DNA of 64,000 bases from an uncultured Christensenellaceae bacterium (GTDB taxonomy: Bacteria > Bacillota > Clostridia > Christensenellales > UBA3700): positions 23,766-87,765 of the forward strand of contig CALWRI010000001.1 of assembly GCA_944383905.1 (NCBI GenBank), given 5' to 3'. Below are positions 15,167-29,608 of this stretch, in pieces. Numbering within the stretch: the first letter of the stretch is position 1; every line of letters begins with the position of its first letter. The translations under genes and the position numbers were made by a program. The notes under the pieces are model-generated. The model saw only the letters and a program-made list of their open reading frames with translations. It was not told the DNA's origin and ran no database searches.

Positions 15167-19415
<4,249 letters not shown>

Positions 19416-19447
19416 ATATATGCCTCTCAAATATATTTTTTACGGTA

Positions 19448-21025
19448 TCATTTCCCGCTGTCGCCGTAGTTGGAAAGCACTCTCGCCGAAGGATCGGACA
19501 CTTCGCAGCCTTTCCAGCTCCTGTTTGGCATCCAGAAGTCCTTTATCATCTCCGCCTGACCGGGATAATATTTTTCGAACAACTCTCTGTACAGCAGGGA
19601 TTCTTTGGTGAACGGGCGCGCGTGCGTGTACCGCGCGCGTCTTTCTTCATATTCTTTATCCGAATAATACCCGTTTGCGTATTCCTTCAGATAGTCGACC
19701 ATCGAGTGCCCGACCGCGTCGGAAAACGCCGCTTTTTCTCTCATCAGTATATCCCGCGGCAACAGCCCGTCGTCTTCGAAAGCCTTGCGGAGCAGGTATT
19801 TGCCCTTGCCGTAGACGTTCATCTTTATCGCGGGATCGAGACTCATCACATACTCGACGAAATCGAGATCGCCGAACGGCACCCTCGCTTCGAGCGAGTT
19901 GACGGATATGCACCTGTCCGCGCGCAGCACGTCGTACATATAAAGCTCCCCGACCCTCTTTTGCGCTTCCTTCTGAAACTCGTCCGCACTCGGCGCAAAG
20001 TCGGTATATTTGTAGCCGAACAGCTCGTCCGAGATCTCTCCCGTGAGTATGACCCTGACGTCCGTCTTCTCGTGTATCGCCTTGCAGACGAGATACATGC
20101 CTATGCTCGCGCGTATCGTGGTTATGTCGTAGGTGCCCAGCACCTTTACCACCGTTTCGAGAGCGTTGAGCACGGTGTCTCTGTCGATTATCACTTCGGT
20201 GTGCTCGCTGCAGATATAGTCCGCGACTTCGCGGGCGTAACGCAGATCTATCGCGTCGCCGCTCATGCCTATCGAAAAGGTCTTTATCTTTCCCAGCTTC
20301 CTTGCGGCAACCGCGCATACGAGCGACGAGTCGAGTCCTCCGCTCAGGAGAAAGCCCACCTTTGCGTCGGATACGAGCCTCTTTTCTATGCCCGCTATCA
20401 GTTTTTCTCTGATCTTCGGGCAAGCGGCGGACGCGTCGTCCGGAGAGACCTTCGCGACCTTCGTCATGTCTCTGTACGAAACGAACTTTTCCCCGTCGTA
20501 ATAGTGACCGGGCGGAAACGGCATTATCCTGTCCGTAAGCCCGACAAGGTTTATCGCCTCGCTTGCGAACATTATCGCGCCGGACGGGTCGTAACCGTAA
20601 AACAACGGTCTTATCCCGATCGGATCGCGCGCCGCGACGAATCTGTCCCTTTCGGAATCGTATATCACGCAGGCAAATTCCGCGTCCAGCATAGCGAACA
20701 TATCCGTTCCGTGCTCCCTGAAGAGAGGCAGGAGCACCTCACAGTCCGAATCGCTCGCGAAAGCGTATCTGCCTTCGAGTTCCTTTCTGAACTTGTCGAA
20801 CCCGTATATCTCGCCGTTGCAGACGACGTAGTCTCCGCCGAGAAAAAAGGGTTGCATCCCTTCGGGCGTAAGTCCCATTATCGCAAGTCTGTGAAAACCC
20901 ATCAGTCCCGCGCCCGTATCGACTATCCTGCTGTCGTCGGGACCTCTCGACGTCGTGCGCGAAAATCCTTCTTCAAACTTGTCGCGCGGCGCGTCTTTGC
21001 GGCAATATGCCATTATCGAACACAT
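19448..21025 (-). CDS. asnB: Asparagine synthase (glutamine-hydrolysing)
   Basis: N-terminal Cys2 (class II amidotransferase). SGGLDSS PP-loop motif. 15 nt downstream of glnN. Confidence 0.9.
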   Translation of the reverse strand: MCSIMAYCRKDAPRDKFEEGFSRTTSRGPDDSRIVDTGAGLMGFHRLAIMGLTPEGMQPFFLGGDYVVCNGEIYGFDKFRKELEGRYAFASDSDCEVLLPLFREHGTDMFAMLDAEFACVIYDSERDRFVAARDPIGIRPLFYGYDPSGAIMFASEAINLVGLTDRIMPFPPGHYYDGEKFVSYRDMTKVAKVSPDDASAACPKIREKLIAGIEKRLVSDAKVGFLLSGGLDSSLVCAVAARKLGKIKTFSIGMSGDAIDLRYAREVADYICSEHTEVIIDRDTVLNALETVVKVLGTYDITTIRASIGMYLVCKAIHEKTDVRVILTGEISDELFGYKYTDFAPSADEFQKEAQKRVGELYMYDVLRADRCISVNSLEARVPFGDLDFVEYVMSLDPAIKMNVYGKGKYLLRKAFEDDGLLPRDILMREKAAFSDAVGHSMVDYLKEYANGYYSDKEYEERRARYTHARPFTKESLLYRELFEKYYPGQAEMIKDFWMPNRSWKGCEVSDPSARVLSNYGDSGK

Positions 21026-21040
21026 AACTTCTCCCCCTTT

Positions 21041-23134
21041 TTACCTGACTCCGAAGAGCAATTCTCCGTAGGTCGGGAACGGCCAGTATTCCGTTGCCAT
21101 CTTCGTCTCCGCTTCGTCTGCGACTGCGCGGAGCGCGCTCATGCAGGGGAGGATCCTGTCCCTGATATAGTTCGCCTCGGATATTATATCACAAAAATCC
21201 TTGACGTGAACGACGGCTTCTTTAAGTTCCTCTGTAAACGCCGCCGTCCTGTCTACCAATACAGACAGCTTTTTCACAATCCCGTGTTCGTAATCGCAAC
21301 TTATGTCGGGCGACAAATTTTTCTTTGAAATTGCCGTTTCACAAATTTTGCAAACGTATTTTTCCACCGCAGGAACGATCTGTTTCTCCGCCATGTCAAC
21401 CATCGTCTCCGCTTCGATCAGTACCGCCTTGCAGTAGTTGTCCAGCATGATGTCGCATCTCGACCTGAGCTCCGACTCCGAATATACGCCCTGCGAAACG
21501 AGCATCTTCACGTTCTTTTCGTCGAGCAGATGCGGCATACAGTCGGGGGTGGTGCGGTAGTTGGAAAGCCCTCTTCTCTCCGCCTCTTTTATCCACGCTT
21601 CGTCATAGCCGTTGCCGTTGAAGATTATTCTCTTGTGATCCTTGATCGTCTTTTTGATCATAAGGTGAAGCGCGGTGTTGAAGTCCTCGACTCCTTCAAG
21701 CCTGTCGGCATACTGTTTGAGTGATTCCGCAACCGCCGCGTTGAGCATGATGTTTGCGCACGCTATGCTGTTGGAAGAACCCAGCATCCTGAACTCGAAC
21801 TTGTTGCCTGTGAACGCAAACGGAGAAGTCCTGTTCCTGTCCGTAGTGTCCTTGGGGAACAGAGGCAAAACGTCAACGCCCAGCTTGAGCTGCGTCTTCT
21901 TTTTTCCGCTGTACGGCTTGTCGTTTTCGATAGCTTCGAGCACCGCGGTGAGCTCGTCTCCGAGGAATACGGAGAGCACTGCGGGCGGCGCTTCGTTTGC
22001 GCCGAGTCTGTGGTCGTTGCCTGCCGTCGCGACCGCGATGCGCAGCAGATCCTGGTAGTCGTCCACCGCTTTGAGCACCGCGCAGAGGAAAAGCAGGAAC
22101 TGCGCGTTTTCATAAGGCGTTTCGCCCGGAGTCAGCAGGTTTACCCCTTTGTCCGTAGCCATCGACCAGTTGTTGTGCTTGCCGCTTCCGTTCACGCCCG
22201 CGAAAGGCTTTTCGTGAAGCAGACAAACGAGACCGTGGCGCGACGCGACCTTTTGCATGATCTCCATGGTCAGCTGGTTGTGGTCCGTCGCTATATTCGT
22301 CGTCGAATATATCGGCGCAAGCTCGTGCTGCGCGGGAGCGACTTCGTTGTGTTCCGTCTTTGCGAGCACGCCCAGCTTCCACAACTCCTCGTTGAGATCA
22401 GCCATATATTCCTCTACCCTCGGCTTTATCACGCCGAAATAGTGATCGTCCAGCTCCTGTCCCTTGGGCGCCTTTGCTCCGAAAAGCGTGCGTCCCGTAT
22501 ATATCAGATCCTTGCGTTTGTCGTAAAGCGCCTTGTCTATAAGGAAGTATTCCTGTTCCGGACCCACGGACGTGCGCACGCACTTGACGTTCGTGTTGCC
22601 GAACAGTCTGAGTATTCTCATCGCCTGTCTGTTGAGCGCTTCCATCGAGCGCAGAAGCGGGGTCTTCTTGTCGAGCGCCTCGCCACCGTAAGAGCAGAAC
22701 GCCGTGGGTATGCAAAGCGTCTTGCCCTTTATAAACGCGAACGAAGTCGGATCCCACGCGGTGTAGCCTCTCGCCTCGAACGTCGCGCGCAGACCGCCCG
22801 AAGGGAAGCTCGAAGCATCCGGCTCGCCCTTTATCAGTTCTTTGCCCGAAAACTCCATGATGACTCTGCCGTCGGGAGCGGGAGTGATGAAGCTGTCATG
22901 CTTCTCCGCGGTTATGCCTGTCAGAGGCTGAAACCAATGGGTGTAATGCGTCGCGCCGTGAGCGATCGCCCAGTCCTTCATGGCACCCGCGACCGCGTTG
23001 GCGACGGATATGTCGAGGGAAGCTCCCCTGTCTATCGTCTTTTTGAGAGACCTGTACACGTCGGCGGAGAGCGTCGCTCTCATGACCCTGTCGTCAAAGA
23101 CCATACTGCCGAAATAGTCGGATACCGTTTGCAT
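21041..23134 (-). CDS. glnN: Glutamine synthetase type III
   Basis: About 700 aa, GS-III length with a conserved N-terminus ([14 protein letters not shown]). Start set at the ATG at 23134, preceded by AAGGAG. Confidence 0.9.
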
Positions 23135-23155
23135 AATTTTTATCTCCTTTTTATT

Positions 23156-23202
23156 AAAAAAGGGCAATGGCGCCTATGTTTTTACCATAGACGCCATTGC
23201 CC
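23156..23202 (-). terminator. Leader attenuator (intrinsic terminator) in the glnN 5' UTR
   Basis: Minus strand: GGGCAAUGGCGUCUAUG-guaaaaa-CAUAGGCGCCAUUGCCC followed by UUUUUU, between the promoter and the RBS. Confidence 0.8.
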
Positions 23203-23221
23203 GATTTGATTTATGTTTTGG

Positions 23222-23250
23222 ATTATACAAAACCCGTAAAGGTTTGTCAA
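23222..23250 (-). promoter_or_regulatory. Consensus sigma-A promoter of the glnN operon
   Basis: Minus strand: TTGACA (23250..23245), 17-nt spacer, TATAAT (23227..23222). Confidence 0.8.
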
Positions 23251-23318
23251 CGGATTTAAGCAAATTCACAAAAAAATTTTTTTGTCCGTTTTCTGCCCTT
23301 TTTTTTGGTAATTTTATG

Positions 23319-23348
23319 TTGACTAATTCTTTTTTTGCGTGCTATAAT
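23319..23348 (+). promoter_or_regulatory. Sigma-A promoter of the split-GOGAT/glnA/ANTAR operon
   Basis: TTGACT (23319..23324), 18-nt spacer, TATAAT (23343..23348). Confidence 0.75.
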
Positions 23349-23358
23349 CTGTCAAACG

Positions 23359-23417
23359 GGCAAAGGCGTTCGTTTTTGAGGATAATTGTCCTTAAAAACG
23401 CGCCTTTGCCTTTTTTT
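23359..23417 (+). terminator. Leader attenuator (intrinsic terminator) in the GOGAT operon 5' UTR
   Basis: About 22-bp hairpin GGCAAAGGCG-uu-CGUUUUUGAGGA-uaauug-UCCUUAAAAACG-CGCCUUUGCC followed by UUUUUUU. It starts about 10 nt after the -10 box and ends 24 nt before the ATG. Confidence 0.8.
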
Positions 23418-23440
23418 ATACCGAAAGAGAGGTTTTTATT

Positions 23441-24529
23441 ATGATCAGAAAAGAAGGTCAGGTCAGGATCCCGTCGGGCTGCGCGGTCTCCGCGGTCATT
23501 TCCCGCGAAAAGAATTTGATGAGCGGAGAAAAAATCGTCGCGAGCATGGTGCCTATGCACGAGCGCTCCAACGGACTCGGCGGCGGCTTTGCCGCTTACG
23601 GCATCTACCCCGATATGGCGGAGTTTTACGCCTTTCATATGTTTTTCGACGACAGAGAAAGTCAGAAAGAATGCGAAGCATATCTCAAAGAGGGCTTCGA
23701 GATCGTCAGAGCGGAACCCATACCCGTGCGCAAGATCCCCGCTATCACGGACGAACCCATAATATTCAGATACTTTCTTTCTCCTTTGCGCTCGCGCATA
23801 GCGGACGCGCAGGTGGACGAAAGAGAATTCGTAGCGCGTGCGACGATGCATATCAACGTCTTCATAAAAGGCGCGTACGTCGTGTCGGGAGGCAAGAACA
23901 CGGGCGTATTCAAGGCGGTCGGCTTCCCCGAAGACGTGGGAGAATTTTACCGCCTCGACGAATATTCGGCATACTGCTGGACAGCGCACGGCAGATACCC
24001 GACCAATACTCCCGGCTGGTGGGGCGGCGCGCACCCCTTCGGACTGCTCGACTACACGGTCGTGCACAACGGTGAGATCTCCTCTTACGACGCTAACCGC
24101 AGAAACGTCGAAGCGTACGGCTACAAATGCACCCTTCAGACGGACACCGAGGTGTTCACCTACATCGCGGACTATCTTCTCCGCCGCAAAAAACTTACGC
24201 TCGAGGAGACGGCAAACGTGATCGCGGCGCCGTTCTGGAGCACGATCGAAAGCAAGCCCGCAGAAGAACGCGAAAGACTGACTTATCTGCGCAACGTGTT
24301 TTCGGGATTCCTCGTGACGGGGCCATTTTCTATAATACTCGGCTTCGAAGGCGGACTCATGGCGCTCAACGACCGTCTCAAGCTCCGCTCCATGGTCGTA
24401 GCCGAAAAGGACGACAAGGTCTTTATCGCGAGCGAAGAAGCTGCAATACGAGTGCTTGAACCGGACGCCGTCAACGTGCGGGCGCCCGAAGGCGGCGAAC
24501 CCGTCATAGTCAGAGTAAAGGAGGACTGA
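23441..24529 (+). CDS. Glutamate synthase, class II glutamine amidotransferase subunit (archaeal-type split GltB, domain 1)
   Basis: N-terminal PSGC motif. Ntn-amidotransferase signature HGRYPTNT..HNGEI. Confidence 0.8.
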   Translation: MIRKEGQVRIPSGCAVSAVISREKNLMSGEKIVASMVPMHERSNGLGGGFAAYGIYPDMAEFYAFHMFFDDRESQKECEAYLKEGFEIVRAEPIPVRKIPAITDEPIIFRYFLSPLRSRIADAQVDEREFVARATMHINVFIKGAYVVSGGKNTGVFKAVGFPEDVGEFYRLDEYSAYCWTAHGRYPTNTPGWWGGAHPFGLLDYTVVHNGEISSYDANRRNVEAYGYKCTLQTDTEVFTYIADYLLRRKKLTLEETANVIAAPFWSTIESKPAEERERLTYLRNVFSGFLVTGPFSIILGFEGGLMALNDRLKLRSMVVAEKDDKVFIASEEAAIRVLEPDAVNVRAPEGGEPVIVRVKED

Positions 24530-24534
24530 CCGCT

Positions 24535-26037
24535 ATGTGGAAAAACTATATATATCCGACTTACGAAGTCGTCAGAAATCAGAACAGATGCACTGACTGC
24601 GGACTGTGCGCCCGCGAATGTTCTTACGGCGTGCACTACCGTTCCGACAAAGGCGTGCTGCTTGCGGACGACTCGAAATGCGTCAACTGCCAGCGCTGCG
24701 TCGCCACTTGTCCGACCCACGCGCTCAAGATCGTGAAAAGCAACTGCGATTTCAGAGAAAACGCGAATTGGAGCGGAGACGCCATTAAAGAGATCATGAA
24801 ACAGGCGGCAAGCGGCGGCGTGTTGCTCTCGTCCATGGGCAATCCCCAACCCTATCCCGTCTATTGGGACAAACTTCTGATAAACGCTTCGCAGGTCACA
24901 AACCCGCCCATAGATCCTCTCCGCGAGCCGATGGAAACGCGCGTGTTCCTCGGCAAGAAACCTTCCGAAATAGCGCGGGACGAACACGGGCGCTTGATTT
25001 GTGATCTTCCTCCCCTTCTCACCGCGGAACTTCCCATACTCTTTTCGGCAATGAGTTACGGCTCGATAAGTTACAACGCCCACTCCGCACTGGCTAACGC
25101 GGCGACGAGGCTCGGGACGTTTTACAATACGGGCGAAGGCGGACTGCACGAAAACTTTTACCGTTACGGCGCCAACACGATAGTTCAGGTCGCTTCGGGC
25201 AGATTCGGCGTGCACAAGGACTACCTCGAAGCGGGCGCGGCGATAGAGATAAAGATGGGTCAGGGCGCGAAACCGGGCATCGGCGGACACCTGCCCGGCT
25301 CCAAAATAGTAGGCGACGTCTCGCGCACGAGAATGATTCCCGAAGGCTCGGACGCTATCTCCCCCGCACCTCATCACGACATCTATTCGATCGAAGATCT
25401 GCGGCAGCTCGTATTCTCTCTGAAAGAGGCGACGGAATACAAAAAGCCCGTCATCGTCAAGATCGCCGCCGTGCACAATATCGCCGCAATAGCCAGCGGT
25501 ATCGCGAGAAGCGGCGCCGACATAATCGCCATCGACGGTTTCAGAGGCGGCACCGGCGCGGCTCCGACGAGGATAAGAGACAACGTGGGCATACCCGTCG
25601 AACTCGCTCTCGCCGCCGTGGATACCAGGCTGCGCGAAGAAGGCATACGCAACGACGTCTCACTCGTCGTCGGCGGCAGTATCCGCAATTCTACCGACGT
25701 CGTAAAGGCGATCGCGCTTGGCGCGGACGCGTGCTATATCGCGACAGCCGCTCTGATAGCCATGGGCTGTCACCTCTGCCGCAACTGCCAGAGCGGAAAA
25801 TGCAACTGGGGTATCGCCACGCAGAAGCCCGAACTCGTCAAACGCCTCAATCCCGACGAAGCCGCGGACAGACTCATCAATCTGCTTACCGCGTGGAAAC
25901 ACGAGATCATGGAGATCATGGGCGGTATGGGCATAAATTCGATCGAAGCGCTCAAAGGCAACAGGCTGATGCTCCGCGGCATAGGTCTTACGCAAAAAGA
26001 GCTCTCCATACTCGGAGTCGCGCACGCGGGAGAATGA
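24535..26037 (+). CDS. Glutamate synthase FMN-binding subunit with N-terminal 2x[4Fe-4S] ferredoxin domain (split GltB, domain 2)
   Basis: Two CxxCxxCxxxCP motifs. GltS FMN-domain motifs (NTGEGG, KMGQGAKPGIGGHLPG). Confidence 0.85.
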   Translation: MWKNYIYPTYEVVRNQNRCTDCGLCARECSYGVHYRSDKGVLLADDSKCVNCQRCVATCPTHALKIVKSNCDFRENANWSGDAIKEIMKQAASGGVLLSSMGNPQPYPVYWDKLLINASQVTNPPIDPLREPMETRVFLGKKPSEIARDEHGRLICDLPPLLTAELPILFSAMSYGSISYNAHSALANAATRLGTFYNTGEGGLHENFYRYGANTIVQVASGRFGVHKDYLEAGAAIEIKMGQGAKPGIGGHLPGSKIVGDVSRTRMIPEGSDAISPAPHHDIYSIEDLRQLVFSLKEATEYKKPVIVKIAAVHNIAAIASGIARSGADIIAIDGFRGGTGAAPTRIRDNVGIPVELALAAVDTRLREEGIRNDVSLVVGGSIRNSTDVVKAIALGADACYIATAALIAMGCHLCRNCQSGKCNWGIATQKPELVKRLNPDEAADRLINLLTAWKHEIMEIMGGMGINSIEALKGNRLMLRGIGLTQKELSILGVAHAGE

Positions 26038-26083
26038 TTCTGCGACTTCAATATCATAGTCAAATCAAAGGAGGTATGTTATA

Positions 26084-26806
26084 ATGATAATACTGAATGC
26101 GCGCGCGACGGACAACGCGGCGCTCAACGAAAGCGTGAGAGCGGCGAAAGACGGCTGTGAAATAATCGGCTGTATAGGCGAAAGATTTATCGGCGCGGGA
26201 CTTTCGGACAGAACGATAAGCATAAAAGGAATTCCCGGCAACGCGCTCGGCGCCTACCTCAACGGCGCGAAGATAATCGTGGACGGCAACGCACAGGACG
26301 CGGTCGGCGACACGATGAACGCGGGCGAGATCGTCGTGCGTGGCAATACCGGCGACGCGGCGGGATACGCGATGCGCGGCGGCAAGATATACGTCAGAGG
26401 CAACGCGGGTTACCGCACGGGCATACACATGAAGGAGTACGGCTCCCGCTTCCCCGTCATCGTGATCGGGGGCAGGTGCGGCAGTTTCCTCGGAGAATAC
26501 CAGGCGGGCGGACTGATAGTCGTGCTCGGTCTGCACGACGACGGCAAACGCATAGTCGGCAACTTCCCCTGCGCGGGTATGCACGGGGGCAAGGTCCTCC
26601 TGCGAGGCAACGCGGACGGCGTCGTCTTCCCCGACAAGGTCACCGCGAGACCCGCAACGGCGGAAGATATGGCTCCCGCGACCGGTTATATCAACGAATT
26701 CTGCGCCGCATTCGGCATAGACGAAAACGAGGTGCTCCGCTCCCCGTTCACCGTCGTGACCCCCGACAGCGCAAACCCTTACAAAAGGATGTATGTAGAA
26801 AACTAA
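26084..26806 (+). CDS. Glutamate synthase GXGXG-repeat subunit (split GltB, C-terminal domain)
   Basis: Repeated beta-helix GXGXG motifs (VRGNTGDAAGYAMRGGKIYVRGNAGYRTG). Confidence 0.8.
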   Translation: MIILNARATDNAALNESVRAAKDGCEIIGCIGERFIGAGLSDRTISIKGIPGNALGAYLNGAKIIVDGNAQDAVGDTMNAGEIVVRGNTGDAAGYAMRGGKIYVRGNAGYRTGIHMKEYGSRFPVIVIGGRCGSFLGEYQAGGLIVVLGLHDDGKRIVGNFPCAGMHGGKVLLRGNADGVVFPDKVTARPATAEDMAPATGYINEFCAAFGIDENEVLRSPFTVVTPDSANPYKRMYVEN

Positions 26807-26819
26807 CAGAGGTGATACC

Positions 26820-28034
26820 ATGAAATACACGGCAAACGAAGTCTTGCAGTACGTCAGAGAAGAAGACGTCAAATTCGTACGTCTCGCGTTCTGCGACGTC
26901 TTCGGCGTTCAGAAAAACATCTCCGTAATGCCGTCCGAGCTCGGGCGCGCGTTCAAAACGGGGATAGCCATCGACGCTTCCGCGATAGCGGGATTCGGCG
27001 ACGTCGCGCACAGCGATCTCTTTCTGCATCCCGACCCGTCCACTCTTTCCGTCCTTCCGTGGAGACCGGAGCACGGCAAGGTGGTCAGAATGTTCTGCTC
27101 GGTGCTCTGCCCCGACGGGACTCCGTTCGTCAACGACGCGCGCGGAATACTGATAAAGGCGATCGAACGTGCGAAACAGGCGGGATATTCTTTCAACTTC
27201 GGCGCCGAAATGGAGTTTTATCTGTTCAGACTCGACGAAAACGGCTTGCCGACGAAGATACCTTACGACAACGCCGGATATATGGACGTGGCGCCTCTCG
27301 ACCGCGGCGAAAACATACGCAGAGAGATATGCCTCACCCTCGAGCAGATGGGCATCCTGCCAGAAAGCTCGCACCACGAAGAAGGCCCCGGACAAAACGA
27401 GATCGACTTCAGATATTCGGACGCCCTGACCGCCGCGGACAATGCGGTGACCTTCCGTTCCGTGGTCAGCACGATAGCCGCGAGAAACGGACTCTGGGCG
27501 GACTTCGGGGCAAAGCCCCTCGCGGACGCGCCCGGCAACGGACTGCATATCAACGTATCCGTCGCGGGAGGAGATCACGACGAGCTCATTCCGAAGGTGA
27601 TCGCCGGTATCCTCGACAAGGTGCGCGACGTCACTCTGTTCCTCAATCCGACAGAAGAATCCTACGCGCGACTCGGCAACAACAAGGCTCCGCGCTATCT
27701 AACATGGTCGAGGCAAAACCGCTCCCAACTCATAAGGATCCCGGCGGCGGTCGGAGAATACAGGCGTGCCGAGCTGCGCTCTCCTGACGCGGCGGCGAAC
27801 CCCTATCTCGCATTCGCCCTGCTCATTTATGCGGGACTTCACGGGATAGAAAACGGCTTGCCTCTGCCCGAACCCGCAGACGTCAACCTCTACACCGCCG
27901 AAAAATCGGTGCTTGACAAATACGCGACGCTGCCTTCTTCTCTCAAAGAGGCGGTCGACGTCGCAAAGGACAGCGCTTTCGTAAAAGCCTGTCTGCCGCA
28001 TGAGATCGTGCAGGCGTACTGCCGACTTGCCTGA
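26820..28034 (+). CDS. glnA: Glutamine synthetase, type I-like (short form, 404 aa)
   Basis: GS beta-grasp N-domain (VKFVRLAFCDVFG) and catalytic-domain motifs (EMEFYLF, HHEEGPGQNEIDF, NGLHINVS). Confidence 0.85.
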   Translation: MKYTANEVLQYVREEDVKFVRLAFCDVFGVQKNISVMPSELGRAFKTGIAIDASAIAGFGDVAHSDLFLHPDPSTLSVLPWRPEHGKVVRMFCSVLCPDGTPFVNDARGILIKAIERAKQAGYSFNFGAEMEFYLFRLDENGLPTKIPYDNAGYMDVAPLDRGENIRREICLTLEQMGILPESSHHEEGPGQNEIDFRYSDALTAADNAVTFRSVVSTIAARNGLWADFGAKPLADAPGNGLHINVSVAGGDHDELIPKVIAGILDKVRDVTLFLNPTEESYARLGNNKAPRYLTWSRQNRSQLIRIPAAVGEYRRAELRSPDAAANPYLAFALLIYAGLHGIENGLPLPEPADVNLYTAEKSVLDKYATLPSSLKEAVDVAKDSAFVKACLPHEIVQAYCRLA

Positions 28035-28055: not shown

Positions 28056-28640
28056 ATGGACTTCAGAGAACGCGTTTACAGCGTACTTACCGTATCCGAC
28101 GGAGAGAGATTTTTCACCTCTCTTTCCTCTTTGCTCCCCGAAAATACCTTTTACCCCGTCGTACGCGCCGGCGACGCCGCGGCAGCCAAACGCGCGCTGC
28201 TCGAAAGAGACTTTGACGTCGTACTCGTCAACGGCACAAAAGCGGACGACCGCGCGAGCAAACTCGCCGTCGACGTCTGCACCTCGAAAAACGGAATCGC
28301 GCTTCTTTTCGTAAAGCGAGAATCCTATGCCGAAATATACTCCAAAGTCGCGGACTTCGGCGTGCTAGTACTGCCCGTTCCGTCCTCGCCGCAGACCGTC
28401 GTACAGGCTCTCGACTGGGCGCGCGCGATGAGAGAACGCCTGCGCGGATACGAAAAGACGGCGCAGACCGTCAGTCAGAAGATGGAGGAGATCCGCGCCG
28501 TAAACCGCGCGAAATGGCTGTTGATAGAAGTGCTAAAAATGACCGAAGCCGACGCGCACAGATACATAGAAAAACAGGCGATGGACAGATGCGTCTCAAA
28601 ACTCGAAGTCGCAAAAGGGATAATAAACACTTACAAATGA
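28056..28640 (+). CDS. ANTAR-domain RNA-binding antiterminator with degenerate receiver-like N-domain (NitR/AmiR-like)
   Basis: C-terminal ANTAR signature (IRAVNRAKWLLIEVLKMTEADAHRYIEKQAMDRCVSKLEVAKGII). The N-domain resembles REC, but the expected phospho-acceptor position reads VVLVN. Confidence 0.8.
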   Translation: MDFRERVYSVLTVSDGERFFTSLSSLLPENTFYPVVRAGDAAAAKRALLERDFDVVLVNGTKADDRASKLAVDVCTSKNGIALLFVKRESYAEIYSKVADFGVLVLPVPSSPQTVVQALDWARAMRERLRGYEKTAQTVSQKMEEIRAVNRAKWLLIEVLKMTEADAHRYIEKQAMDRCVSKLEVAKGIINTYK

Positions 28641-28689: not shown

Positions 28690-28774
28690 TCTCCCTTGCC
28701 GACAAAATGCGCGCTATCGTTTGCGCGCGCGGATTTATAGTGTTATCATATTGTTTGCCGCAAAATGACAGGAG

Positions 28775-29608
28775 GTGGAGAAAATGCGCTTCAAGTACGG
28801 TTGCCGCGACGGCGTCCCGATAATGCTGGGATACCTGACCGTATCTTTCACGTTCGGCGTGAGTTGCGTCGCCAAAGGGTTTGCCTGGTGGATGCCGCTT
28901 TTGTGTTCCGTGACCAACTTCACGGGCACGGGACAGTTTGCCGGAATGGACCTTATCGCGAGCGCGGGAAGCGTGGCGGAGCTTGTCGCGACTATGCTCG
29001 TGATCAACGCGCGCTATGCCCTCATGGGCGTTTCTCTGTCTCAAAAACTGGGCGGCAAAACAAGACTGTGGCAGCGATTTTTCATCGCTTTCGGGCTGAC
29101 GGACGAAAACTACGCGGTCTCGATGAGACAGCCCCGCGACGTATCTTTCCAATACTTCCTCGGCGTTTCGGTCACCGCCTACTCGGGCTGGGTGGCGGGC
29201 ACTCTGCTCGGCGCGCTGGCGGGCAACGTGCTCCCGCAAAGTCTTTTGAGCGCGTTCGGCATAGCGCTGTACGCGATGTTCATAGCGATCGTCATACCGC
29301 CGTGCCGCACCTCGAAAGCCGTTTCGACGGTGGTGCTCACCGCTATCGCAATGAGCTGCCTTTTCTATTACGTCCCCGGTCTCAACTCTCTGTCGTCGGG
29401 TTGGTCGATAATAATCTGCGGGGTGGCTTCGGCTTTTATCGGCGCGGTATTCTTCCCCGTCAAGCCCGAAAACGGAGACTCCGACAAACCGAAAGACGGC
29501 GTAATCTTCGGTTCCGCGACCCGGGATAACAGTCTCAAAGACGGTGCGGACGTCTGCGACGGCAAAACGCAGGACGCTGTCTTACCGCAGGCGGGAGGCA
29601 GACGATGA
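28775..29608 (+). CDS. azlC: AzlC-family branched-chain amino acid exporter subunit (with about 45-aa hydrophilic C-terminal extension)
   Basis: AzlC-type N-terminus (FKYGCRDGVPIMLGYLTVSFTFG). Multi-TM. ATGA overlap with azlD. Confidence 0.8.
   Translation: MEKMRFKYGCRDGVPIMLGYLTVSFTFGVSCVAKGFAWWMPLLCSVTNFTGTGQFAGMDLIASAGSVAELVATMLVINARYALMGVSLSQKLGGKTRLWQRFFIAFGLTDENYAVSMRQPRDVSFQYFLGVSVTAYSGWVAGTLLGALAGNVLPQSLLSAFGIALYAMFIAIVIPPCRTSKAVSTVVLTAIAMSCLFYYVPGLNSLSSGWSIIICGVASAFIGAVFFPVKPENGDSDKPKDGVIFGSATRDNSLKDGADVCDGKTQDAVLPQAGGRR

Follow-up and report, generated by a model that had tools for sequence, protein, structure and literature searches.

The RNA targets of ANTAR antiterminators have been described as a family defined by two hexaloop hairpins that are joined by a linker of 2-25 nt (PMC3369931; PMC8164766). 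The consensus of these substrates reads 'SYAC AAHGRH GUDB' for the first hairpin (P1) and 'RRGY AAHGDV GCYY' for the second (P2; PMC3369931 Fig S2). In a crystal structure of EutV with RNA, both ANTAR domains of the dimer grip a single hexaloop; in the same work the minimal ANTAR motif was redefined as a single hexaloop, sites of this kind were expected where the polymerase sets no time limit, and a search for them was called for (PMC8934654). Here we analyze a 64-kb stretch of DNA from an uncultured Christensenellaceae bacterium, referred to as the window in the following, in which a 306-nt spacer (23135-23440) forms the divide between a minus-strand gene set headed by glnN, the gene of a type III glutamine synthetase (GS-III), and a plus-strand operon of glutamate synthase (GOGAT), GS-I and ANTAR genes. 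Each gene set is preceded by a short leader with a terminator hairpin, and we consider it likely that both leaders are protein-dependent ANTAR-type transcription attenuators, built on one hexaloop hairpin and not on two.

In Firmicutes, the outlines of an ANTAR control over glutamine synthetase (GS) and GOGAT genes are known through NitR and through the bioinformatic hits in Table S2 of PMC3369931, and the leaders described here do not constitute a new kind of system. For instance, the GS/GOGAT genes of Clostridium saccharobutylicum are reportedly induced by the ANTAR antiterminator NitR when nitrogen becomes limiting (cited in PMC6316151), and the same order of a GS gene followed by an ANTAR gene is given for the cluster Clo1313_2030-2036 of C. 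thermocellum (PMC4676874). Likewise, ANTAR RNA matches beside GS, GOGAT and ANTAR genes appear in Table S2, Fig S2 and Fig 9 of PMC3369931 for Desulforudis, Carboxydothermus, Alkaliphilus, Desulfitobacterium and Desulfotomaculum. The gut lineages of the Christensenellaceae, Lachnospiraceae and Oscillospiraceae do not figure among the organisms A to D of that Table S2.

The two leaders and their alternative folds

A sequence-only reading that preceded this analysis had placed two near-consensus sigma-A promoters back to back in the spacer, each of them running into a terminator hairpin with a shared 5' arm. Both promoters are recovered by a consensus scan (Table 1), which found five promoter-like sites in the region 22500-24000 against 1.2 expected from shuffles, and homologous units in other genera are also preceded by a TTGACA/TATAAT arrangement. 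The hairpins and their U-tracts were found within 1-2 nt of where that reading had put them. They are positioned just ahead of the ribosome-binding sites (RBS), within the first ~60 nt of the predicted transcripts, and have folding energies of -33.8 kcal/mol (z = -7.9) on the minus strand and -37.9 kcal/mol (z = -6.4) on the plus strand; in neither case was any of 200 shuffled sequences as stable.

The motif that the two 5' arms share, GGGCAAWGGCG, occurs as an exact match three times in the window, always inside the spacer, with one of the three copies being the palindromic minus hairpin read in mirror image. As had been proposed, this segment can alternatively fold into a small hairpin, which we call P1 as well, with a hexaloop that has A at position 1 and G at position 4 (A1/G4). 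Folded alone, P1 amounts to -2.5 kcal/mol in the minus leader and -4.7 kcal/mol in the plus leader, and to -3.5 and -4.3 kcal/mol in the consensus sequences of the two classes described below, compared with a median terminator energy of -22 kcal/mol among the related units. Since P1 is weak relative to the terminator, the default state would be termination, and read-through would need something that stabilizes P1.

The two folds compete for the same nucleotides. In the plus leader, the basal 11 pairs of the terminator are made with the P1 loop and the 3' strand of the P1 stem, and among the related units the terminator takes up a median of 10 of 14 P1 nucleotides (GC, loop and 3' stem). When P1 is enforced in the minus leader, no terminator helix is left beside the U-tract; in the plus leader, an apical A/U-rich 9-bp hairpin alone remains, about 14 nt away from the U-tract. 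The idea that the small hairpin would open the base of the terminator thus agrees with the computed folds, and on this sequence-based evidence the earlier view of both elements as leader attenuators is supported.

The hexaloops themselves, AAAGGC and AAUGGC in the window and A-A-N-G-R-N with a C-G closing pair in the family, correspond to the published ANTAR consensus AAHGRH/AAHGDV (PMC3369931 Fig S2). As this is the full consensus, the likeness goes well beyond A1 and G4. Three of the structural features by which Ramesh et al. (2012) recognized ANTAR targets are found in both leaders, namely the A1/G4 hexaloop, a short paired stem with its closing pair, and the sharing of the hairpin with the 5' arm of the terminator; the fourth, a pair of hairpins (P1 and P2), is found in neither.

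Conservation and covariation across Clostridia

The ANTAR protein encoded in the window has thousands of homologues, with 79% identity to one from the Christensenellaceae. We scanned one genome per species, with 10-kb flanks around the ANTAR gene where the contig allowed, and thereby obtained 80 loci (1.05 Mb in total) from Christensenellaceae, Lachnospiraceae, Oscillospiraceae, Acutalibacteraceae and other Clostridia. In these loci we find GGCAAWGGCG many times over with a hairpin and a T-run behind it, and the element as such is present in more than 100 copies. Its unit is a 6-bp stem, with a C-G closing pair and then a G.U pair, and the hexaloop A-A-N-G-R-N, of which the loop and the 3' stem form the base of a terminator. 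The scan pattern itself demands G4 in the hexaloop, and a relaxed scan turned up a few units with G in place of A1. The units fall into two classes: class A, with the stem AAAGGC[AANGRN]GUCUUU, precedes glnN, gdhA, asnB, purA and purC, and class B, with the stem AUGAGC[AAAGGC]GUUCAU, precedes the GATase_2 gene, or the GS-I gene directly, of operons that end in the ANTAR gene.

A covariance model built on P1 (R1) matches the plus leader (23352-23379(+); 26.4 bits, E = 7e-6) and the minus leader (23181-23208(-); 21.1 bits, E = 4.6e-4), and its matches in the window are limited to the two leaders and their mirror images. A further site that was flagged by the relaxed pattern scan (56611 (+)) is without R1 support and was treated as a false positive. 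In the 1.05 Mb around the ANTAR genes, R1 yields 141 matches at E <= 1, mostly with E < 0.01, where all E-values are rough owing to a short calibration. A covariance-model search of related Clostridia, as the sequence-only reading had suggested, recovers covarying stems upstream of glnN and of the GOGAT operon, and the motif is not absent from the orthologous leaders.

The association with particular genes is tight. Exactly one unit, of class B, lies within 450 nt upstream of 34 of the 36 GOGAT-type operons that end in an ANTAR gene. An upstream unit is also present at 36 of 40 glnN genes (29 single, 7 double). When 141 P1-pattern matches were picked regardless of a terminator, a loop-pairing terminator came next in 105 of them (74%); given that this lenient test is passed by 12-15% of control positions, the 74% is to be read as an enrichment and not as an absolute rate. 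Among promoter-proximal units, P1 starts 7-11 nt past the -10 hexamer in 73 of 79 cases, i.e. at about +1 to +4 of the RNA. The plus leader of the window fits this rule, with P1 beginning at about +1/+2 of its predicted transcript, whereas P1 of the minus leader begins about 12 nt into the transcript, unlike in most relatives. The earlier remark that little RNA precedes the terminator describes the family well; a small correction concerns the minus leader, for its later start and for its P1 of only 4 bp. In sum, the element is far beyond chance and conserved, with covariation, in dozens of genera.

Several Lachnospiraceae-like loci (L010:1970-2050, L016:1354-1434, L054, L060 and L075:5874-5975, on minus strands) carry a class-A unit about 30-40 nt past the gdhA stop codon (...AMNAQGIV*) and before glnN. 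These intergenic units imply that the element also acts as an intercistronic attenuator, in the order promoter-unit(-unit)-gdhA-unit-glnN, and they resemble the multiple terminators within the eut cluster. Some glnN units have a conserved stretch upstream that looked like a second motif or a sigma-54 site; it was rejected as it is the 3' end of gdhA.

Most promoter-proximal units have P1 at the extreme 5' end, and a 5'-terminal stem-loop can protect Firmicute mRNAs. One might therefore see in these elements unregulated structures, either mRNA-stabilizing 5'-terminal hairpins or constitutive partial terminators that damp strong promoters. This would leave unexplained the conservation of the loop letters A1, A2, G4 and R5, the exactness with which P1 overlaps the base of the terminator in over 100 units, and the restriction to nitrogen-assimilation genes beside an ANTAR regulator, and we regard it as highly improbable.

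Evidence that both folds are maintained comes from covariation. In a gapless P1 alignment of 76 distinct units (A3), 96.1% of the cells of the 6-bp helix are paired, and in four of the six pairs both partners have changed; none of 500 shuffles does as well, and sliding the 3' partner lowers the pairing to 40-59%. Examples of changes between classes are A-U/U-A, A-U/G-C and G-C/A-U, the outer pair takes the forms G-C, U-A and U-G within classes, and the covariance model later recovered variants such as UGAGAC/GUCUCA and AAGAGC/GUUCUU. The covariation cells are dominated by the split between class A and class B plus a handful of further events, and the two top pairs (C-G, then G.U) are invariant in the 76 units, partly through the pattern by which these were collected. 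For the terminator, the pair between hexaloop position 3 and the 3' arm is A-U in 82, U-A in 10, G-C in 7 and C-G in 7 units and is missing in only 3 of 115, so that the loop covaries with this arm. Moreover, RNAalifold on 34 class-B leaders returns the terminator with the hexaloop columns in its basal helix and with compensatory changes in 11 of 19 pairs. The minus leader of the window and its orthologue in locus L002 display this directly: AAUGGC/GCCAUU in the former is matched by AACGGC/GCCGUU in the latter, where the terminator 3' arm has changed along with the loop and keeps the pairing.

These observations bear on the proposal that the conserved sequence near +1 is a DNA operator, for example of the GlnR/TnrA type, and that the hairpins are ordinary or incidental. 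The motif does overlap the start region of a strong promoter, and it is conserved in sequence and not just in structure. However, G.U pairs are conserved that DNA would have to carry as mismatches, and the constraint therefore acts on the RNA; besides the invariant G.U, the plus leader of the window contains two more. Furthermore, the terminator covaries with the loop, units are also located far from promoters, between gdhA and glnN, and with one mismatch allowed there is no TGTNAN7TNACA box in 23135-23440 (elsewhere in the window there are seven, against 11 expected). We give a DNA operator hardly any credence.

Within a class, the stem (AAAGGC/GUCUUU or AUGAGC/GUUCAT) is near-invariant across the families of Clostridia, which exceeds what pairing demands. 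One may suspect that the stem is contacted in a sequence-specific way, or that the initially transcribed region is constrained. As for the existence of two stem classes, different affinities that lead to an induction hierarchy are one possibility, and contacts to the upper stem are another.

The sequence-only reading had noticed just one hexaloop per leader, and this turns out to be a property of the whole family. Downstream of P1 and before the U-tract, 5 of 116 units contain another A..G.. hexaloop hairpin when 4-bp stems are required (3.0 expected from shuffles) and 11 of 116 do so with 3-bp stems (8.2 expected), and the 45 nt upstream of P1 contain such a hairpin in just 2-6 of 116 units. 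A dual-hairpin covariance model (R2), built from the 22 eut-type substrates of PMC3369931 Fig S2, has no sense-strand match on either leader of the window and returns nothing below E = 0.03 in the 80 loci. The tandem units that occur in some glnN and gdhA leaders lie 65-90 nt apart and have a terminator each. The architecture is one hexaloop per terminator, which is in accord with the crystal structure in which an EutV dimer grips one hexaloop (PMC8934654).

Could the second hexaloop of a canonical dual-hexaloop mechanism have been overlooked, in the terminator apex, in a tandem unit or downstream of a start site that lies further upstream than predicted? Tandem pairs are found in 7 of 36 glnN leaders and in the gdhA leaders of Lachnospiraceae-like loci, the start sites are predicted ones, and related Firmicute GS/GOGAT leaders were scored as dual hairpins by Ramesh et al. 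in the listed matches of PMC3369931. Yet the counts given above are at shuffle expectation, neither window leader has a second hexaloop, and all 34 unit-bearing GOGAT leaders have exactly one unit. The spacing of the tandem units is outside the published 2-25 nt linker, and their separate terminators, too, set them apart from P1/P2 pairs. The eut-type model lacks a sense match in the window and a significant match in the loci, and a promoter with 12/12 or 11/12 consensus positions stands upstream of P1 at a conserved spacing. A hidden second hexaloop is thus very unlikely in our view.

Both terminators are near-palindromic and bordered by an A-run and a T-run, which is why the antisense strands at 23133-23175 (+) and 23388-23417 (-) score with the RNA models (R2, 16.7 bits; R1, 21.1 bits). 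The first of these, the sole match of R2 in the window at E < 0.1, mirrors the glnN leader on the antisense strand, and its P1 is spurious; the second is, like 23156-23182 (+), an opposite-strand R1 match that mirrors a terminator. All of them were rejected as candidates. The two terminators could act bidirectionally, and no promoter that would feed them from the opposite side was seen.

The regulator and the genes around the spacer

The last gene of the plus operon (28056-28640) encodes, as had been claimed, an ANTAR protein: it scores 53.7 bits with Pfam ANTAR (PF03861; cut-off 27.3) and consists of a pseudo-receiver, a coiled coil and the ANTAR domain. Over its full length it is related to Rv1626, with residues 11-192 aligned to 17-198 of the latter (1s8n; E = 9e-10), and it matches AmiR (1qo0; E = 0.004, weak) and EutV (6wsh) less strongly. 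In a mapping by sequence alignment, the EutV residues that contact G4 (K149, E160 and Y164) correspond to K153, E164 and H168, which are invariant in 81/81 family members; AmiR likewise has a His at the position of EutV Tyr164. The phospho-acceptor position is occupied by Asn59 (N in 77 of 81 family members, D in one), the acidic pair of receiver domains is replaced by Ser14 and Asp15 (Ala in most relatives), and the window protein has Val108 in place of the conserved Lys. No kinase family was matched among the adjacent open reading frames (ORFs) that were scanned against Pfam. Judged by these residues, the regulator is an AmiR-like pseudo-receiver, and the hallmarks of the phosphorylation-controlled type (EutV/Rv1626) are not found in it. 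Since it has no phospho-acceptor Asp and no kinase was recognized in the ORFs scanned, it is probably controlled by a partner or a ligand.

A GS-I homologue is encoded immediately upstream of the ANTAR gene in all 74 loci with enough upstream flank. In the window, the protein (26820-28034) reaches 333 bits with the NCBIfam GlnA equivalog, whose cut-off is 429, and, given that glnN is present as well, its role may be that of a divergent or regulatory GS and not of the housekeeping enzyme. We regard it as a candidate for the signal partner or sensor of the regulator.

The gene association also has to be weighed against the notion that the leaders are regulated attenuators, but that P1 (or the terminator) is stabilized by some other factor, be it an RNA-binding protein, a small RNA or a metabolite. 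After all, the link between the RNA and the ANTAR gene was ascertained through that very gene, and units are also found at genes several kb away from it (gdhA, purA and purC). Against another effector stand the fit of the loop to the ANTAR consensus at five of six positions plus the closing pair, and the class-B unit ahead of 34 of 36 operons that end in an ANTAR gene. As for a metabolite, an 18-nt hairpin is too small for a ligand pocket, and a scan of 22800-23800 against Rfam at E <= 10 gave only sub-threshold chance matches (PyrR, plastid psbA and miRNAs), with best scores of 25-27 bits compared with gathering scores of 54 for Plastid-psbA-1 and PyrR and with E >= 0.15 throughout; the small size and the lack of an Rfam match make a riboswitch unlikely. 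While this is the most serious of the alternatives, we consider a different effector unlikely. Ribosome-mediated attenuation through a leader peptide was also rejected, as no conserved small ORF was seen; a TTG-initiated ORF at 23386-24075 is out of frame with the GATase_2 gene and was treated as spurious.

The features of the spacer and its flanking genes are compiled in Table 1. On the minus strand, the gaps between glnN, asnB and guaA are 15-17 nt, and asnB and guaA are probably co-transcribed with glnN; the gene order guaA-asnB-glnN also occurs in loci L002, L003 and L073. On the plus strand, the first three genes (23441..26806) encode a three-subunit, i.e. split or archaeal-type, glutamate-synthase-like set. 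Together with the GS-I-like gene, the cluster of GATase_2, flavin mononucleotide (FMN) and GXGXG subunits presumably also resembles clusters of the glnT-glxBCD or gmaS-mgsABC type.

In most related operons, an extra gene of about 1.6 kb (e.g. L009:6347-8021) is inserted between the FMN and GXGXG subunit genes, where the window has a gap at 26037-26084; one ORF from this position begins MKKYVIIGNGIAAAGC and resembles an FAD/NAD(P) oxidoreductase. The extra gene is lacking in the window and in its closest relatives, L001 and L002. Directly 3' of the ANTAR gene, a 254-aa ORF (28765-29529 (+)) is without a Pfam or NCBIfam match.

Table 1. Promoters, leader structures and genes at the glnN/GOGAT divide, in window coordinates
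Feature	Position	Strand	Details
Sigma-A-type promoter of glnN-asnB-guaA	23250..23222	minus	TTGACA (23250..23245), 17-nt spacer, TATAAT (23227..23222); 12/12 consensus; predicted start ~23215
P1 of glnN leader	23202..23189	minus	GGGC (23202..23199), hexaloop AAUGGC (23198..23193), GUCU (23192..23189); 4 bp; weakened class-A variant
glnN-leader terminator	23202..23156	minus	17-bp stem (23202..23186 with 23178..23162), 7-nt loop, U6 23161..23156; first 14 nt identical with P1
glnN, type III glutamine synthetase (GS-III), 697 aa	21041..23134	minus	Pfam GSIII_N 2e-80, Gln-synt_C, Gln-synt_C-ter; first gene behind minus leader; RBS GGAG 23147..23144
asnB, glutamine amidotransferase	19448-21025	minus	Pfam; downstream of glnN
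guaA, glutamine amidotransferase	17886-19430	minus	Pfam; downstream of asnB
Sigma-A-type promoter of GOGAT/GS-I/ANTAR operon	23319..23348	plus	TTGACT (23319..23324), 18-nt spacer, TG-extended TATAAT (23343..23348); 11/12 consensus; predicted start ~23355
P1 of plus leader	23356..23373	plus	ACGGGC (23356..23361), hexaloop AAAGGC (23362..23367), GUUCGU (23368..23373); 6 bp; class-B variant
Plus-leader terminator	23358..23417	plus	11 + 13 pairs with UU bulge (23358..23410/11), U7 23411..23417
GATase_2 subunit gene	23441-24529	plus	Pfam; RBS GAGAGG 23427..23432
Fer4 + Glu_synthase FMN subunit gene	24535-26037	plus	Pfam
GXGXG subunit gene	26084-26806	plus	Pfam
Short GS-I-like protein, 404 aa	26820-28034	plus	Pfam Gln-synt_C 4e-88; directly upstream of ANTAR gene
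ANTAR regulator, 194 aa	28056-28640	plus	Pfam ANTAR 53.7 bits; last gene of plus operon

Proposed mechanism and comparison with known systems

The structures and their mutual exclusivity, the covariation of both folds, the loop signature, the gene association and the features of the protein are computed here; binding by the ANTAR protein, the start sites, the direction of the response and the signal are inferred. We propose the following course of events. Strong sigma-A promoters, identified by their consensus matches, would fire in both directions, and the first ~20-30 nt of each RNA would fold into the weak P1, whose stem of 4-6 bp has a G.U pair below the C-G closing pair and carries the loop A-A-N-G-G-C. 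Unaided, P1 would be displaced once the terminator 3' arm is made (-34 to -38 kcal/mol), so that transcription would stop at the U-tract after ~60 nt; by default, the genes would be OFF. An active ANTAR dimer, presumably under nitrogen limitation, would clamp the P1 hexaloop, as the loop signature, the conserved contact residues and the gene association suggest. By analogy with EutV, G4 would stack on His168 and be held by Lys153 and Glu164. The clamped P1 would withhold 10-14 nt of the terminator base and leave a remote apical hairpin in the plus leader and nothing in the minus leader, allowing read-through into glnN-asnB-guaA and into the GOGAT/GS-I/ANTAR operon. As the ANTAR gene is part of its own target operon, this arrangement would entail positive autoregulation. 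The activity of the regulator is probably set by a protein partner or ligand, as that of AmiR is by AmiC, with the adjacent short GS-like protein as the best candidate.

Several points weigh against this reading. With EutV, antitermination depends in vivo as well as in vitro on both hairpins and on the spacing between them, and a single loop that works co-transcriptionally would go against this sole tested system. P1 of the minus leader has only 4 bp, two of them G.U pairs, and in the protein the column of EutV R142 holds Ile146, with Arg/Lys at 147 (Arg in the window). The basis is computational throughout and the start sites are predicted. All comparative loci were gathered via the ANTAR gene, so the co-occurrence of RNA and protein is partly a matter of ascertainment, and it is gene adjacency that suggests the GS-like protein as the sensor. 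With these points taken into account, we still favor single-hexaloop, ANTAR-dependent attenuation as the likely explanation for both leaders.

A more far-reaching version is, in our estimate, somewhat less likely than not. It holds that one 18-nt hexaloop hairpin, formed from the first transcript nucleotides and without an upstream recruitment hairpin, is all that a pseudo-receiver (AmiR/NitR-like) ANTAR dimer needs to bring about antitermination during transcription; that this single-hexaloop switch governs the main nitrogen regulon (glnN, gdhA, GOGAT, asnB and purA/purC) of Christensenellaceae, Lachnospiraceae, Oscillospiraceae and related gut Clostridia; and that the adjacent short GS-like protein is the sensor. 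If true, it would counter the EutV-derived view that two correctly spaced hexaloops are needed under the time limit set by the polymerase. Under the more ordinary reading, the leaders would be a new subfamily of a known mechanism and entail no new principle. The window and its relatives also offer a compact 60-nt leader for testing the minimal requirements of ANTAR proteins, a search model for the nitrogen regulon of abundant, mostly uncultured gut Clostridia, and a candidate signaling pair, the short GS-like protein and the pseudo-receiver ANTAR protein, which would be analogous to GS-TnrA or AmiC-AmiR.

Among known systems, the ribonucleic antiterminator (RAT) of LicT, SacY and BglG has in common with P1 that one protein-stabilized hairpin overlaps the 5' arm of a terminator. 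The fold of the CAT domain and the 29-30 nt RAT with its internal loops are unrelated to what is seen here, and these systems are not members of the same family.

AmiR-amiE of Pseudomonas aeruginosa resembles the window system in its regulator: AmiR is a pseudo-receiver ANTAR protein, is controlled by a partner (AmiC) and has a His at the position that stacks on G4. With both AmiR-amiE and NasR-nasF of Klebsiella oxytoca, the window leaders share a short leader just before a terminator and nitrogen-related targets. They differ from these in that the amiE and nasF leaders are described as dual hairpins, and in the inputs, which are AmiC for AmiR and a NIT domain for NasR.

In its gene logic, NitR (glnA-nitR and gltAB; Stutz et al. 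2007, as cited in PMC6316151 and PMC4676874) matches the window. As far as the reviews that cite the NitR work describe it, the ANTAR gene directly follows a GS gene there too, and antitermination of GS/GOGAT genes has been proposed; that system also involves an antisense RNA and a conventional GltAB, whereas the targets here are the GS-III gene glnN and a three-subunit GOGAT-like set. The ANTAR RNAs of other Firmicutes show the same regulon theme and are reported as dual hairpins in the tables and figures of PMC3369931 cited above. Among them, two hits from Desulfitobacterium hafniense beside GS and GOGAT-like genes (057 and 095; NC_007907.1 5011991-5011936 and 4989851-4989798; PMC3369931 Fig S2) have a class-B-like P2, GAGC AAAGGC GCUC, and a listed P1 that is barely pairable (UUUU AAUGCA GAAA and GUUA --UGCU UAAU). 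These two may really be single-hexaloop units, which PMC3369931 does not state.

There are also parallels to the EutV-controlled eut leaders of Enterococcus faecalis and Listeria (PMC3369931, PMC8934654). Common to both are the AAHGRH hexaloop with A1/G4, the C-G closing pair and the short stem; the position of the hairpin's 3' side within the 5' arm of an intrinsic terminator; the presence of multiple units per regulon, some of them intercistronic; and a regulator of ~190 aa with the order receiver, coiled coil and ANTAR domain. In contrast to the eut leaders, there is one hairpin per terminator here, with no upstream recruitment hairpin, and it usually forms from +1 to +4. The regulator has Asn for the phospho-acceptor Asp, with no Pfam kinase match in the adjacent ORFs scanned; the targets belong to central nitrogen assimilation and not to ethanolamine use; and the eut-derived covariance model misses these units. 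In a full-text literature search, we found no description of single-hexaloop targets in this clade, of a P1 that starts with the first transcript nucleotides, or of two stem classes tied to two gene sets. The structural work on EutV and its RNA (2022) raised the question whether there are targets with a single hexaloop and, if so, what is regulated by them. A single hexaloop that overlaps a terminator in a co-transcriptional setting is unexpected, and the window, together with more than 100 related units, would be a natural and conserved answer to that question.

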